Part shown: in pieces, positions 45,543 through 49,086 of the stretch
Position numbering within the stretch: the first letter of the stretch is position 1
How the letters are laid out: each line of letters begins with the position of its first letter
NCBI GenBank assembly: GCA_014729995.1
Contig: WJIZ01000041.1
Coordinates: forward strand, 10,584 to 74,583
Direction: 5' to 3'
DNA from: Candidatus Woesearchaeota archaeon
Lineage (GTDB): Archaea > Nanobdellota > Nanobdellia > Woesearchaeales > WJIZ01
DNA length: 64,000 nt
The notes under the pieces: generated by a model
Databases searched by the model: none
The model's input: the letters and a program-made list of their open reading frames with translations, nothing else
What the model was told of the DNA's origin: nothing
Made by a program: the position numbers and the translations under genes

Positions 45543-46292
45543 ATGGATGATAAGCAGTGGAACAGCTTGGCAGAAAATTATCATGAGGAAATAGTAAGCC
45601 CTTTCTTCCGTGATGTGGAAAATCCCCTATTTGCCGAGATACGCAGGATAAAGAACAGTAAGGATAAGAAAGCTGCTGAATTCGGCTGCGGTTTGCTGTA
45701 TCTGGGGAATCTTCTCTCAGGGTCTTTCAGGGCTGTCCATGCATCTGACTTCTCTGAAAATATGGTAAGGAAAGCAAGACAGAGGAATAAGCAGCTTAAG
45801 AACATTACAATAAAAAAAGAAGACCTTAGAAATATAAGCTATAAGGGCGAATTTGATGTTGCCATCTCATGCAACTCTATAATTATGCCCTCTTTCAGGG
45901 ATAATCTAAAGGCATTCTGCAACATTAACAATGCATTAAAGAAGAACGGCGTTTGCTTCCTTATACTCCCTTCAATGGAATCTGTATTGTACCACGGCAT
46001 GCTCCTGCTGCACAGCGAACTGATTGGTAAAGAAACAAAAAAAGCCAGGAAAAAGGCAAAAAGAAAATTTGAAAACAGCTGCTATGATTTCTTCCTTGGC
46101 CATTACCATGATGGCGACCAAACCCAGAAATTTTATTACCTGCATGAGATAGAATATATGCTGAAGAAAGCAGGGTTCAGGAAAATAGAAGTTAAAAAAG
46201 TAAAATATCCATGGGGAAAAGACATATCAGATTATGAAGACTTCCCCAAAGAAAAAAAGATGTGGGACTGGTTTGTCAGTGCACGGAAATAG
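45543..46292 (+). CDS. class I SAM-dependent methyltransferase
   Basis: Motif I EFGCGLLYLG and the Rossmann-fold pattern. Confidence 0.65.
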   Translation: MDDKQWNSLAENYHEEIVSPFFRDVENPLFAEIRRIKNSKDKKAAEFGCGLLYLGNLLSGSFRAVHASDFSENMVRKARQRNKQLKNITIKKEDLRNISYKGEFDVAISCNSIIMPSFRDNLKAFCNINNALKKNGVCFLILPSMESVLYHGMLLLHSELIGKETKKARKKAKRKFENSCYDFFLGHYHDGDQTQKFYYLHEIEYMLKKAGFRKIEVKKVKYPWGKDISDYEDFPKEKKMWDWFVSARK

Positions 46293-46857
46293 TCTCGTCT
46301 TCTATATGGCTGCAGTTTTGTGGGCAGTTTACCTGGTTTTTATTCTCATAATCTATATTCATGGGCAGAACAAGGTCTTTGGCAGATGTTATGACAATAT
46401 TCAGCTCAATCTCCTTTACTTTTGGGTTGCCTCTTAAATGGCAGTTGACTATGCCCTCCAGCCTCTTTAAGTCAGTGGCTGTAAAAAACAGGCATAAATT
46501 ATATTTTCCCGACGTAATCAATGCATTTATGAAAAAAGGGCAGTCTTTGAATTCTTTTATAATGGCGGTGGTATTTGTTGCATTAACGTCAACTTTAGCA
46601 AGCGACAAGTTCACAGTCCTGAAATTAACCCCGTTCACGCTGTAAAGTACTCCTTTTTCATGCAGCTTTCTGATCCTTGCGCCCACGCTTGGCTGGCTCA
46701 GCTTGACTTTTTTGGCTATCTCTTCCTGCGGTACATGGGGATTTTTCTGCAGCAGGGACAAGATAGTGTTATCCCTGTCATCCAGGCCGAGCTTCTCGTT
46801 TATCTGTATTTTCTTCTTGAAGTCTTTGATTTTTGTGTAAAACTGGTTTTTTGACAT
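46276..46857 (-). CDS. Lrp/AsnC-family-like transcriptional regulator with C-terminal extension
   Basis: HTH LSLLQKNPHVPQEEIAKKVKLSQPSVGARIRKLHEKGVL, then a RAM-like domain and CPQNC. Confidence 0.55.
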   Translation of the reverse strand: MSKNQFYTKIKDFKKKIQINEKLGLDDRDNTILSLLQKNPHVPQEEIAKKVKLSQPSVGARIRKLHEKGVLYSVNGVNFRTVNLSLAKVDVNATNTTAIIKEFKDCPFFINALITSGKYNLCLFFTATDLKRLEGIVNCHLRGNPKVKEIELNIVITSAKDLVLPMNIDYENKNQVNCPQNCSHIEDETISVH

Positions 46858-46977
46858 TTTATTATAATTATTTTAGCATTCTTTATAAAAATTTCTTTTT
46901 GTTTAATCCAAAATCGGGTATTTTACTTATATTTTATAGTAGGTACTTTTATATATTCATTACACCGTTTTAGAAAC

Positions 46978-47175
46978 ATGCAGATAACAAAAGATACCTT
47001 GATAGGAGATTTGGTAAAACAAAAGCCGGAATCTGTAAATGTTCTGATGAAGCACGGAATGCACTGTATAGGCTGTTCTGTTGCCACATGGGAAACTCTG
47101 GAGCAGGCCTGCCAAAGCCACGGCATTTCTGTCAATAATCTGGTCGGGGATCTTAAAGAGGTGAAAAAGAAATGA
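46978..47175 (+). CDS. DUF1858 (hybrid-cluster-protein-associated redox disulfide) domain protein
   Basis: 65 aa with the TIGDLV...P..V.VL.KHGMHCIGC pattern. Confidence 0.65.
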   Translation: MQITKDTLIGDLVKQKPESVNVLMKHGMHCIGCSVATWETLEQACQSHGISVNNLVGDLKEVKKK

Positions 47176-47291
47176 GATGCGGAAACAGCTGCGAGGTTTA
47201 TTCCAGGATCGTCGGCTACTTCAGGCCGGTGCAGAACTGGAACATAGGCAAGAAAGAAGAGTTTAAAGACAGGAATGAATTCAGCATTTAA
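47172..47291 (+). CDS. 39-aa ORF resembling the C-terminal glycyl-radical domain of anaerobic ribonucleotide reductase NrdD
   Basis: MRCGNSCEVYSRIVGYFRPVQNWNIGKKEEFKDRNEFSI. Compare NrdD C-termini RV.GY......WN.GK.EE...R with the radical Gly in VGY. ATGA overlap with DUF1858. Not in the ORF track. Confidence 0.45.
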   Translation: MRCGNSCEVYSRIVGYFRPVQNWNIGKKEEFKDRNEFSI

Positions 47292-47451
47292 GCCTGCAAT
47301 GGGCTCTTTATCTTATTCAGTATATTGAAATTTTTCAGAAAATAGCAGCATGCTAAAGAAAATGGCCAGATGATAGCCTCTAAGAGATGGCCCTCCATCT
47401 TAGGGCTATTTTCTGGCCTTCTACTTTAAATAATTTTTGGAGGTGATAAGC

Positions 47452-47487
47452 ATGGGCGAAGGAGGATGCGGCGGCTGTAGCTGCTAA
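47452..47487 (+). CDS. 11-aa cysteine-rich micro-ORF (MGEGGCGGCSC) with strong SD
   Basis: GGAGGTGAT lies 6 nt upstream of the ATG. Preceded by an imperfect long hairpin at 47364-47418. Confidence 0.3.
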   Translation: MGEGGCGGCSC

Positions 47488-47593
47488 GCAGAAAAATGGG
47501 TGATTTCCCCCTCATTTCACATATTCATTATAGTAATTCATTGTAAATCCATTAAGAAAGTCAGATTTTCTGGAATTACAGAAGGAGGCAAAA

Positions 47594-47827
47594 ATGAAAA
47601 AAGTAAAAATATATTCGACGCCAACCTGCCCATGGTGCAGGAAAGCAAAATCTTACCTCGAGGATAAAGGGGTGGAATTTGAAGATGTGGACGTATCAAG
47701 AGACCATGAGGCGCAGCATGAGATGGTCGAGAAAAGCGGCCAGATGGGAGTTCCAGTCTTGGATATAAAGGGCAGGATTATTGTCGGATTTGATCAGAAT
47801 GCTATAGAGCAGGCTTTAGCAGTATAA
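47594..47827 (+). CDS. glutaredoxin-like protein (NrdH/YruB type)
   Basis: YSTPTCPWCRKAK..GVPVLDI..IVGFD. Confidence 0.8.
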   Translation: MKKVKIYSTPTCPWCRKAKSYLEDKGVEFEDVDVSRDHEAQHEMVEKSGQMGVPVLDIKGRIIVGFDQNAIEQALAV

Positions 47828-47844
47828 GGTAGGAGGCGGTTCAA

Positions 47845-47958
47845 ATGGAAAACTATTGTAGTGAGTGCGGTGAAAGGCTGCAGAGAAATGAGGCAGGGTC
47901 GTTATTCTATTGTGTGAAATGCAGTCAACAGCACGGCCGGAGAAACGTTTTGCAATAA
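47845..47958 (+). CDS. 37-aa zinc-ribbon protein
   Basis: MENYCSECGERL....FYCVKCSQQHG. AGGAGG SD upstream. Not in the ORF track. Confidence 0.35.
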   Translation: MENYCSECGERLQRNEAGSLFYCVKCSQQHGRRNVLQ

Positions 47959-47973
47959 ATTTTGGGGTGAAAA

Positions 47974-48537
47974 ATGGTAAGCATAAACGACAAAGCGCCG
48001 GATTTTACAGAAGACGCGTTTGCTGGCGGGAAAATAAAAAAGGTAAGTTTATCGGACTATAGCGGGGAGTGGGTGATACTATTTTTTTATCCTGCTGATT
48101 TTACATTTGTCTGCCCGACAGAGCTGGGCGAACTGGCAGCCAGCTATGAAAAATTTAAGAAGCTCGGTGCTGAAATAATAAGCGTATCGACAGATACAGC
48201 ATTTGTACACAAGGCATGGCACGATAATTCCGATACCATAAGGAAGATTAAGTTTCCCATGCTTGCGGATCCTGCAAGAAGGGTCTGCAGCTCATATCAC
48301 ACCCTGATTCAGGATGAGGGATTATCGTTAAGGGCAACCTTCTTCATAAATCCTAATGGCAATATTAAGGCTTTCGAGTTCCACGATAACAATATAGGCA
48401 GGAGCATAGGAGAAACATTAAGAAAGCTTGAGGCAGCTAAATTCACTGAGGAAAATAAGGGGCAGGTGTGCCCCATGAACTGGAAGCCGGGCGCGGAAAC
48501 TCTTAAACCAGGCCTGGATTTAGTGGGAAAGATATGA
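47974..48537 (+). CDS. ahpC: peroxiredoxin (typical 2-Cys, AhpC/Prx1 family)
   Basis: FFYPADFTFVCPTEL peroxidatic Cys, and the resolving Cys near the C-terminus (GQVCP). Confidence 0.85.
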   Translation: MVSINDKAPDFTEDAFAGGKIKKVSLSDYSGEWVILFFYPADFTFVCPTELGELAASYEKFKKLGAEIISVSTDTAFVHKAWHDNSDTIRKIKFPMLADPARRVCSSYHTLIQDEGLSLRATFFINPNGNIKAFEFHDNNIGRSIGETLRKLEAAKFTEENKGQVCPMNWKPGAETLKPGLDLVGKI

Positions 48538-48558
48538 AAGATATAAAATCAGGAGGCA

Positions 48559-49086
48559 ATGAAAATGGTAATGAACGAGAAAGTCGAAAAGCTGATGAAC
48601 GAGCAGATTAATGCAGAACTGTATTCTGCATACCTTTACCAGTCAATGGCCGCATATTTCGAATCGGTCAATTTAACAGGGTTTGCCAGATGGATGGAAG
48701 TGCAGGCATTGGAAGAGATGACCCATGCACAGAAATTCTACAGGCATATTAACGAAAGGGCAGGCAGGGTCTTGCTTAAGGCAATGGAAGCTCCCCCTGT
48801 AGGATGGAACTCTCCTTTGCACATTTTTGAGGAATCCTACAAACATGAGCAGAAAGTCACAGCTTTGATAAATAATATCGTAAAAGTCTCAAATGAAGAA
48901 AAAGACTACGCTTCTCAAAGCCTGCTTCAGTGGTTCGTGGATGAGCAGGTGGAAGAAGAAGACAGCACAGACCAGATTGTCCAAAAGCTGAGGATGATCA
49001 AAGATAACCCGGGCGCTTTATACATGCTGGATAAGGAGCTTGGAGCAAGAACCTTCACTCCCCCAAAAGAAAAATCAAAAGAGTAG
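48559..49086 (+). CDS. ftn: ferritin (non-haem, Ftn-like)
   Basis: Diiron ferroxidase-site E/H pattern (ELYSAYLYQSMAAYF...EEMTHAQKF..). Confidence 0.75.
   Translation: MKMVMNEKVEKLMNEQINAELYSAYLYQSMAAYFESVNLTGFARWMEVQALEEMTHAQKFYRHINERAGRVLLKAMEAPPVGWNSPLHIFEESYKHEQKVTALINNIVKVSNEEKDYASQSLLQWFVDEQVEEEDSTDQIVQKLRMIKDNPGALYMLDKELGARTFTPPKEKSKE

Follow-up and report, generated by a model that had tools for sequence, protein, structure and literature searches.

A candidate spare glycyl-radical subunit for a two-piece class III ribonucleotide reductase in a Woesearchaeote

Introduction

Within a 64-kb stretch of DNA from a Candidatus Woesearchaeota archaeon (assembly GCA_014729995.1, contig WJIZ01000041.1, positions 10,584 to 74,583 of the forward strand; hereafter the window), an open reading frame (ORF) of 39 codons encodes a product, the 39-mer, that matches the very end of NrdD, the class III ribonucleotide reductase (RNR). 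We find that the nrdD gene of this genome is itself divided into a large body and a short tail with its own start codon, and that the 39-codon ORF is a second copy of this tail, placed at the head of a thiol and peroxide stress island. The ORF is probably a maintained and translated gene, and we see about an even chance that it provides, as a second copy of the glycyl-radical small subunit of a naturally two-piece class III RNR, a spare for times of stress.

NrdG is the radical-SAM activase that makes the glycyl radical near the C-terminus of NrdD. Oxygen adds to glycyl radicals and cleaves the backbone of the enzyme at the radical glycine (PMC12288474). For pyruvate formate-lyase (PFL), the small protein GrcA/YfiD, a homologue of the PFL C-terminus, restores the activity of the cleaved enzyme after being activated on it; whether spare parts exist beyond PFL is stated as not known (PMC8683613). 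A review of June 2026 likewise describes spare parts only for formate lyases, with other glycyl-radical enzymes yet to be determined (PMC13450708). In the collection of papers searched, we found neither a split class III RNR nor a spare part for NrdD. The locus described here is a concrete candidate spare part for class III RNR, on which strict anaerobes depend for DNA synthesis. A first-pass annotation of the window, made from the sequence alone, had already proposed that the 39-codon ORF encodes a free-standing NrdD radical module parallel to GrcA/YfiD.

Results

Assignment of the 39-mer

The 39-codon ORF (47172..47291, + strand) was compared with profile collections, which bear out its earlier assignment to the extreme C-terminus of NrdD, radical-glycine context included. 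The 39-mer matches positions 526-562 of the 562 positions of the Pfam family NRDD (PF13597) with an E-value of 7e-12 and 45.2 bits, against a gathering score of 26.2, so that the similarity is significant in a profile search, a point that the first-pass annotation had left to be checked. Four equivalog models of NrdD in NCBIfam also match it at their C-terminal ends (TIGR02487, positions 545-580 of 581, E 1.4e-11), the 39-mer being too short to reach the cut-offs of these whole-protein models. Both the R-x-x-G-Y loop and the helix motif W-N-x-G-K-x-x-E-F-x-x-R are present (SRIVGYFRPVQNWNIGKKEEFKDR). Residue 15 (codon 47214-47216), within SRIVGYFRPV, which is followed by NWNIGKKEEFKDR, is the candidate radical glycine. 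In an alignment with NrdD tails from 40 loci, fused as well as split, the 39-mer corresponds to them column by column. Profile and motif place it in the family of NrdD C-terminal domains (Pfam PF13597; NCBIfam TIGR02487, NF006358, and NF006126).

The 39-mer has no match to the PFL-type glycyl-radical family (Gly_radical, PF01228), and NCBIfam contains no dedicated model for a free tail, only the ends of the full-length NrdD models matching it. In PHROGs, neither the 39-mer nor the phage-borne 48-mer described below has a family. A phmmer search with the 39-mer against the PDB sequences returned nothing at E-values up to 1, the solved NrdDs being too distant for a 39-residue single-sequence search, and the exact 39-mer sequence has no record in public assemblies. 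The protein homologue search used the 68-residue main tail of the same genome, introduced next, as its query.

The nrdD of the genome is in two pieces

The window belongs to the 1.33-Mb, 98% complete assembly of a Woesearchaeote. As the first-pass annotation had noted, there is no nrdD body within the 64-kb window, and the sole other NRDD match in the genome lies on another contig (C16), in an operon of nrdR, nrdD, an nrdH-like gene, and nrdG. This nrdD (L001 1120-3348) is in two pieces: a body of 673 residues, a TAG stop, and a tail of 68 residues with its own ATG and Shine-Dalgarno (SD) box. The body ends in ..IPKEVE-TAG, and the very next codon is the ATG of the tail, followed by MACGKRCEVYSR.. 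(the start of the 68-residue tail is MACGKRCEVYSRVVGYF..). The start of the 39-mer, MRCGNSCEVYSRIVGYF.., coincides to the residue with that of the main tail. Together the two pieces cover the NCBIfam model NF006126, the body matching positions 3-650 (1005 bits) and the main tail 646-683. The body is an ATP-cone, the barrel, and the first half of the zinc (Zn) ribbon, and the separately initiated tail, of 40-70 residues, is the second half of the ribbon, the radical-glycine loop, and the C-terminal helix. The 39-mer accordingly has only the distal part of the Zn ribbon (C3 and C7; CGNSC), and the proximal C-x2-H and one Cys stand at the end of the body ORF; the Cys and His residues of the body and the Cys residues of the tail may share one Zn ion as a docking clamp.

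The location of nrdD and nrdG bears directly on what the 39-mer is. Since both genes are found on C16, and nrdD has a tail of its own there, the 39-mer is a second copy and not the displaced 3' end of a truncated nrdD, as the first-pass annotation had considered it might be. A class I/II RNR barrel (PF02867) was looked for in the 98%-complete genome and not found, no match to PF01228 occurs anywhere in it, and exactly one NrdG scores above the cut-off. That the split NrdD is the sole route to deoxynucleotides found in a genome of this completeness argues that it works.

Split nrdD genes across the order

With the 39-mer as query, 145 of the 401 genomes searched in the order had a match. In about 50 of the 401, a short-frame tail (38-170 residues) lies directly beside a tail-less body of 660-720 residues, a count obtained by hand cross-reading of the search tables for the 39-mer and the body; the rest have a one-piece NrdD of 700-900 residues. 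We inspected the junctions of 25 split loci, two of them bacterial (a metagenome-assembled genome of Saganbacteria and a 5.1-Mb bacterial contig). Relative to the body, the tail is in frame 0 at 5 loci, in frame +1 at 12, and in frame +2 at 8, the spacing ranges from -38 nt (overlap) to +52 nt (gap), and the start codon of the tail is nearly always ATG. An SD box with a GAGGT core, typically AAAGAGGTGA, stands 5-9 nt before this codon at about 20 of the 25 junctions. Given three frame relations, varied spacing, and a recurrent ATG with its GAGGTG box, the junctions are, on the evidence of their layout, translationally coupled cistrons and not a recoding site, and splitting is a trait of the lineage and not a fault of assembly. 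Where such genes are annotated as broken or as pseudogenes, the annotation is probably wrong. In these ~20 loci the SD box, AAAGAGGTG(A), doubles as the last codons of the body (..KEV..). The window copy has the same AAAGAGGTGA box, there as the final codons of a DUF1858 gene, which suggests that the duplication carried the ribosome-binding site along with the tail gene.

Fusions are found as well. In two genomes (G262 and G309; L029 2678-3151 and L031 2665-3159) the tail is fused to an NrdH-like redoxin in a protein of 157-164 residues, and both genomes keep a bare extra tail elsewhere; at a third locus (L010), body, tail, and NrdH form one chain of 821 residues. Because the tail is found fused to NrdH in two genomes and as part of a single body-tail-NrdH chain in another, it can be regarded as a movable module. 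A separate observation concerns the body: in seven genomes (G218:C28, G350:C80, G344:C51, G130:C29, G094:C35, G127:C19, and G142:C8) the body match comes in two blocks (query ~5-277 and 276-661) about 1 kb apart, both within a single open frame of 970-1160 codons, and this break of ~1 kb at one conserved site looks like an intein or another large insertion.

Extra tails in other genomes

Extra tails away from nrdD occur in 10 genomes from several families, a tail being counted as extra when there is no nrdD body in the ~3 kb of flanking sequence on each side (only 1.2-2.3 kb in the 5.2-kb contig of G106). Most of them adjoin genes for PerR, rubrerythrin, peroxiredoxin, or superoxide reductase, or an Lrp-type regulator like that of the window. 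In G139, the gene of a PerR-like regulator (NCBIfam PerR models at E 1e-27 to 1e-22, below the equivalog cut-offs) overlaps that of a 43-residue tail, which is followed by two rubrerythrins. In G262, a 42-residue tail heads a block encoding a pentapeptide protein, a peroxiredoxin that is 75% identical to the one in the window, and a Zn-ribbon protein, and in G309 the tail lies amid a thioredoxin-like membrane protein, a rubrerythrin-like protein, and a superoxide reductase (SOR) of the desulfoferrodoxin type. Four genomes (G078, G083, G178, and G056) have a homologue of the window's Lrp-type regulator (50-73% identity) divergent from one or two proteins of 76-101 residues that comprise a whole Zn ribbon and the glycine loop; in G078, rubrerythrins, a glutaredoxin, and a thioredoxin reductase follow. 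An 82-residue copy in G287 is near a thioredoxin reductase.

The extra copies also match the enzymes with which they share a genome. In G078 and in G083, NrdD is present as two one-piece paralogues, and the autonomous domains, also two, comprise one of each sequence type (SRITGY.Q.. and SRVTGY.TPV..), this type-matching of tandem domains covering the two genomes for which the nrdD loci were fetched. G056 has a single enzyme and a single autonomous domain, both with the unusual motif GYCTPV, and in G287, G139, and the genome of the window the extra tail pairs best with the main tail of its own genome. Every autonomous copy retains the radical glycine together with all motif residues that flank it. 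Among the comparative evidence, the strongest argument for selection on extra tails is that the resident tail has been duplicated repeatedly and independently into the vicinity of stress genes.

Some further forms were noted. Two autonomous Zn-ribbon-plus-glycine-loop proteins of 81-101 residues stand in tandem by an Lrp-type regulator at L037 2849-3365, L038 2792-3348, and L039 2787-3373 (with L075 and L076); the extended type of 81 residues has four small homologues in a large protein collection, so that the subtype is rare or the word index misses some. Beside the free tail of G262 is the start of a large ATP-cone protein (L028 1-1586, - strand), whose match to NrdD is confined to the first 100 residues of the latter and which possibly represents another RNR class. 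Finally, phage or prophage replication modules carry a conserved 48-residue NrdD tail gene (MAKCG..EIYSRVVGYFRPV..; L061 5001-5147, L062, L063, L066 4001-4147, and L067 3280-3426), located between genes for a Sak4-like annealing protein and a phage single-stranded DNA-binding protein, with RusA, a DEAD helicase, and Prim-Pol nearby, on bacterial contigs of the Victivallaceae type. MAKCG is also the start of the tail of a split nrdD that lies on a bacterial contig of a related sample.

Conservation of the window copy

The 39-mer is identical to the main tail of its own genome at 25 of 32 core residues. At the nucleotide level, the two differ at 17 of 17.7 synonymous and 11 of 78 non-synonymous sites (proportions pS 0.96 and pN 0.14), and the corresponding values against the main tail of a genome of the same genus are 0.99 and 0.10. 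No conserved motif residue has been lost, and the reading frame is intact. Neutral decay is disfavoured, because the motif residues and the frame have been kept despite saturated synonymous change.

Model of the complex

We modelled residues 115-673 of the body in complex with the 39-mer. Three concordant runs gave a score of 0.79, whereas the highest score among three controls was 0.00; the 0.79 mark is reached by 51 of 78 solved complexes vs 2 of 108 mismatched pairs. The modelled contacts involve nearly the whole 39-mer and the 25 C-terminal residues of the body. The prediction shows that the 39-mer can be placed like a native NrdD C-terminus, from which binding itself does not follow.

The DUF1858 gene and the Lrp-type regulator

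The tail gene of the window is the second cistron behind a gene (46978..47175, + strand) for a DUF1858/TIGR03980 redox-disulfide protein of 65 residues with a CIGC motif. The product matches PF08984 with an E-value of 8.8e-21 and 74 bits (cut-off 32), the C-x-x-C motif being present, and the NCBIfam model TIGR03980, 'hybrid cluster protein-associated redox disulfide domain', with 91 bits (cut-off 45). The ATG of the tail overlaps the TGA of DUF1858 as ATGA, an overlap that had been described in the first-pass annotation and is indeed present, and the SD box of the tail, GAGGTGA (47158..47164, + strand), lies 7 nt before its ATG within the last DUF1858 codons (..LKEVKKK).

DUF1858 recurs around nrdD. 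A second DUF1858 protein, 37% identical to the first, is encoded on C16, ~3.6 kb downstream of nrdG. A pair of DUF1858 and ferredoxin genes closes the nrdD-nrdG clusters of G262 and G309, a ferredoxin-like ORF adjoins DUF1858 in G222, and DUF1858 alone flanks nrdD in G139 and G070. The nrdD operons at L025, L027, L029, L031, and L034 are accompanied by DUF1858. From this company we infer that DUF1858 assists the NrdD system through thiol or Fe-S redox upkeep. The region 3' of nrdG on C16 (L081 246-3096) encodes a Cys-rich protein of 77 residues, a flavin-reductase-like protein, a deoxycytidine monophosphate deaminase, the second DUF1858 protein, a ferredoxin of 63 residues, and a DUF362-like Fe-S protein, a block that may serve the electron supply or upkeep of RNR.

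Divergent to the DUF1858-tail pair is the gene of a regulator of the Lrp/AsnC family (46276..46857, - strand; 193 residues) with a Cys-containing C-terminal tail (Pfam HTH_24 2.8e-13, HTH_AsnC 3.1e-11, and AsnC_trans_reg 3.4e-4). Homologues with 50-74% identity adjoin free tails in G078, G083, G178, and G056, and split nrdD genes in G070 and G222; in G070 the Fer4-281aa/Lrp/DUF1858 neighbourhood of the window is found with a split nrdD adjoining it. The C-terminal Cys residues form C-x3-C or C-x2-C, depending on the genome (window, L025, L034, and L037-L040). The regulator may be a redox-sensing controller of tail and nrdD genes.

Discussion

Proposed function

The DUF1858-tail bicistron heads an island of glutaredoxin, peroxiredoxin, ferritin, and SOR genes beside the Lrp-type regulator. 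In the mechanism that we propose, NrdG would install the radical on the glycine of a tail that has docked on the body. Oxygen would then cleave the tail at the radical glycine, destroying only the small subunit of 40-70 residues, and the bicistron would supply fresh tails, with which intact bodies could be re-armed after anoxia returns, at minimal cost. More tentatively, and with somewhat less than even confidence, we propose for the system as a whole that these DPANN archaea, and some bacteria, possess a two-subunit class III RNR with a consumable radical subunit. The bicistron would be an oxygen-damage repair kit, consisting of a fresh radical subunit and a redox-disulfide helper, that is switched on together with the stress island by the Cys-bearing Lrp-type regulator. 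It would be the first spare-part system outside PFL, one that has evolved repeatedly, is matched to paralogues, and has been borrowed by phages. If so, it would explain how tiny-genome anaerobes at oxic interfaces could recover the synthesis of deoxynucleoside triphosphates cheaply. The two-piece gene in any case indicates that class III RNR can exist naturally as a body and a detachable radical peptide, and tails of 39-68 residues offer a minimal substrate for studying radical installation by NrdG.

Relation to known systems

The parallel with GrcA/YfiD drawn in the first-pass annotation stands in part. The 39-mer is a free-standing NrdD radical module in that it is a second copy, intact, SD-led, and conserved, with analogues in other stress loci; it is not a domain cut from a one-piece enzyme, since the enzyme is in two pieces and the 39-mer is a paralogue of its small-subunit gene. 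Like the GrcA/YfiD protein from Escherichia coli and the Y06I protein of phage T4, the 39-mer is small, free-standing, and essentially a radical domain only, with the large enzyme and the activase encoded elsewhere in the genome (body, main tail, and NrdG on C16), and by analogy it would replace the part cleaved by oxygen. As with Y06I, a phage-borne version exists, namely the 48-residue NrdD tails in prophage replication modules. Unlike GrcA, the 39-mer matches NRDD and not Gly_radical (PF01228; IPR011140), which makes it an analogue and not a member of that family. It also has 39 residues compared to ~127 and lacks the disordered N-terminal half, and its target enzyme is already in two pieces, so that the spare would be a paralogue of the normal small subunit with no retained strand to displace.

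Compared to the one-piece NrdD/NrdG systems of phage T4, E. coli, and Thermotoga maritima, the body and tail together span the full equivalog model, the RxxGY loop and the N-x-G-K-x-x-E-F-x-x-R motif are kept, and nrdG is adjacent; the Woesearchaeote chain differs in being interrupted inside the C-terminal Zn ribbon, with the radical glycine on a separate chain of 40-70 residues of which extra copies exist. The NrdD of Methanosarcina barkeri reportedly goes together with an NrdH-like redoxin and a ferredoxin:disulfide reductase, as Wei and co-workers are said to have described in Biochemistry in 2015. The present system resembles it as an archaeal nrdD operon with an NrdH-like redoxin, the nrdH-like gene here following the tail (and being fused to it in some relatives) and a small ferredoxin and DUF1858 accompanying it, and differs in that the M. 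barkeri NrdD is one-piece. To our knowledge, neither a role for DUF1858 nor an autonomous tail has been described for M. barkeri. The only split RNR that we found in the literature is the class II enzyme NrdJa/NrdJb of Pseudomonas aeruginosa (Crona et al. 2015, as cited in PMC9669993). There, too, the RNR chain is encoded by two adjacent genes, with the C-terminal part containing the Zn finger on the second chain. In contrast to the split NrdD, however, NrdJa/NrdJb is B12-dependent and has no glycyl radical or consumable radical site, NrdJb is large and folded, and no stress-linked extra copies are known.

Points against a maintained spare

Several observations weigh against this proposal. With only 39 codons, a pairwise dN/dS comparison cannot assign the constraint to the window copy or to its partner, and the picture would be no different had a functional tail been acquired recently from a donor that has not been sampled. 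The DUF1858-tail arrangement was not found in DNA searches of one genome of the same genus and four of the same family, which have the main tail only, and the copy is therefore lineage-specific. No RNA runs containing window positions 46000-49000 were found; only two DNA runs, from a hypersaline-lake metagenome, hold 6-7% of the sampled words. The docking score may be the model's memory of one-piece NrdD structures. Lastly, the extra copy in G106 stands beside a cysteine synthase gene and not beside stress genes.

Alternative readings

The free tail might be functional in a way other than repair, either as a stress-time blocker of the body or of NrdG that keeps RNR radical-free, or as an alternative isoform without the 30-residue C-terminal extension of the main tail. 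The difference in length (39 vs 68 residues) agrees with this idea, as does the apparent oxidative-stress control, which fits an action during, and not after, exposure to oxygen, and the fusion of the main tail to NrdH in G262 and G309, where the extra tail is bare, means that the two forms are not fully equivalent. However, a blocker would not need the radical glycine and flanking motif that every autonomous copy retains, and the docking model puts the 39-mer at the interface expected of the native tail. We consider this alternative unlikely.

A relic is the next possibility, in which the 39-codon ORF would be a short and recent, non-functional leftover of a second split nrdD operon, ancestral or transferred, whose body and nrdG have been lost. 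Loss of a neighbouring nrdD is plausible given the arrangement in G070, where a split nrdD adjoins the same Fer4-281aa/Lrp/DUF1858 genes, and the failure to find the DUF1858-tail arrangement in the nearest genomes searched, or an RNA run that covers the region, would be expected of a relic as well. Against it, synonymous sites are saturated relative to every known homologue, the genome's own copy included, with pN at 0.10-0.15 and a complete motif, and the start codon, SD box, and ATGA coupling are all intact. The idea of an nrdD body remnant 5' of the 39-mer was rejected, as a six-frame match extended to 47058-47282 (that is, over the upstream 47058-47171) gains ~1 bit and crosses two stops. 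The independent extra tails in nine other genomes, moreover, argue for selection. Taken together, these results leave the relic quite improbable.

A different kind of function was suggested by the first-pass annotation for the DNA that follows the tail gene, namely that a hairpin and a micro-ORF form a cis-regulatory leader of the glutaredoxin/peroxiredoxin island, or that the micro-ORF encodes a tiny thiol peptide. Both elements are present as had been described: an imperfect hairpin of ~24 bp (47364..47418, + strand) in the spacer of ~160 nt, and the 11-codon ORF MGEGGCGGCSC (47452-47487), which together with its GGAGGTGA box 5 nt before the ATG spans 47439..47487 (+ strand). The spacer (164 nt) has a minimum free energy of -50.8 kcal/mol, with a z-score of -2.9 vs shuffled sequences, and the hairpin folds as claimed. 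A leader would be in keeping with the strong box, such boxes being rare in the window (~9 strong SD motifs on both strands of the 64 kb, two of which precede the 39-codon ORF and the micro-ORF), with the stable hairpin just upstream, and with the presence of three Cys among the 11 residues of an ORF that stands where a thiol-redox island begins. The proposed function nevertheless fared poorly. The coding pattern of the micro-ORF, allowing up to two mismatches, was not found in 40 related genomes, the spacer has no DNA similarity in the five nearest genomes, the hairpin has no Rfam family (the sole match being a chance one to a long non-coding RNA at E 0.98), and 11 codons give no statistical handle. 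The hairpin was also considered as a repeat or mobile element and rejected, there being no second copy in the genome. A leader or thiol-peptide role is thus very doubtful; on the simplest reading the hairpin would be a terminator, a transcript-end stabiliser, or a processing hairpin after the bicistron, and the SD-led micro-ORF would be either a genuine lineage-specific peptide or a product of chance.

Finally, that NrdD is made as one chain by read-through of TAG (or by frameshifting in relatives), the small tail ORFs being by-products that are not independently translated, is hardly credible, for although body and main tail of this genome (G000) share one frame with a single TAG between them, TAG as a pyrrolysine codon was rejected (no PylS was found in the genome, the best match reaching 25 bits vs a cut-off of 178), the tails of relatives lie in three frame relations at -38 to +52 nt with an ATG and GAGGTG box nearly always, and the window copy follows a DUF1858 gene, so that no read-through product could include an NrdD body.

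Other features of the locus

A TATA-like box (46947..46957, + strand) was read from the sequence ~26 nt 5' of the DUF1858 ATG, the genome being AT-rich, and DUF1858 is possibly a leaderless first cistron behind it. Downstream of the micro-ORF, the first gene of the thiol/peroxide island encodes a glutaredoxin-like protein of 77 residues (47594..47827, + strand; Pfam Glutaredoxin 5.9e-21). It is followed by an ORF for a Zn-ribbon protein of 37 residues with a double C-x2-C (47845-47958), a peroxiredoxin gene (47974-48537; Pfam AhpC-TSA 5.4e-41), and a gene for a ferritin-like protein (48559-49086). In the G262 locus with the extra tail (L028), the peroxiredoxin is followed by a Zn-ribbon ORF of 42 residues similar to that at 47845-47958, and the pairing of Zn ribbon and peroxiredoxin may be conserved between the two loci.

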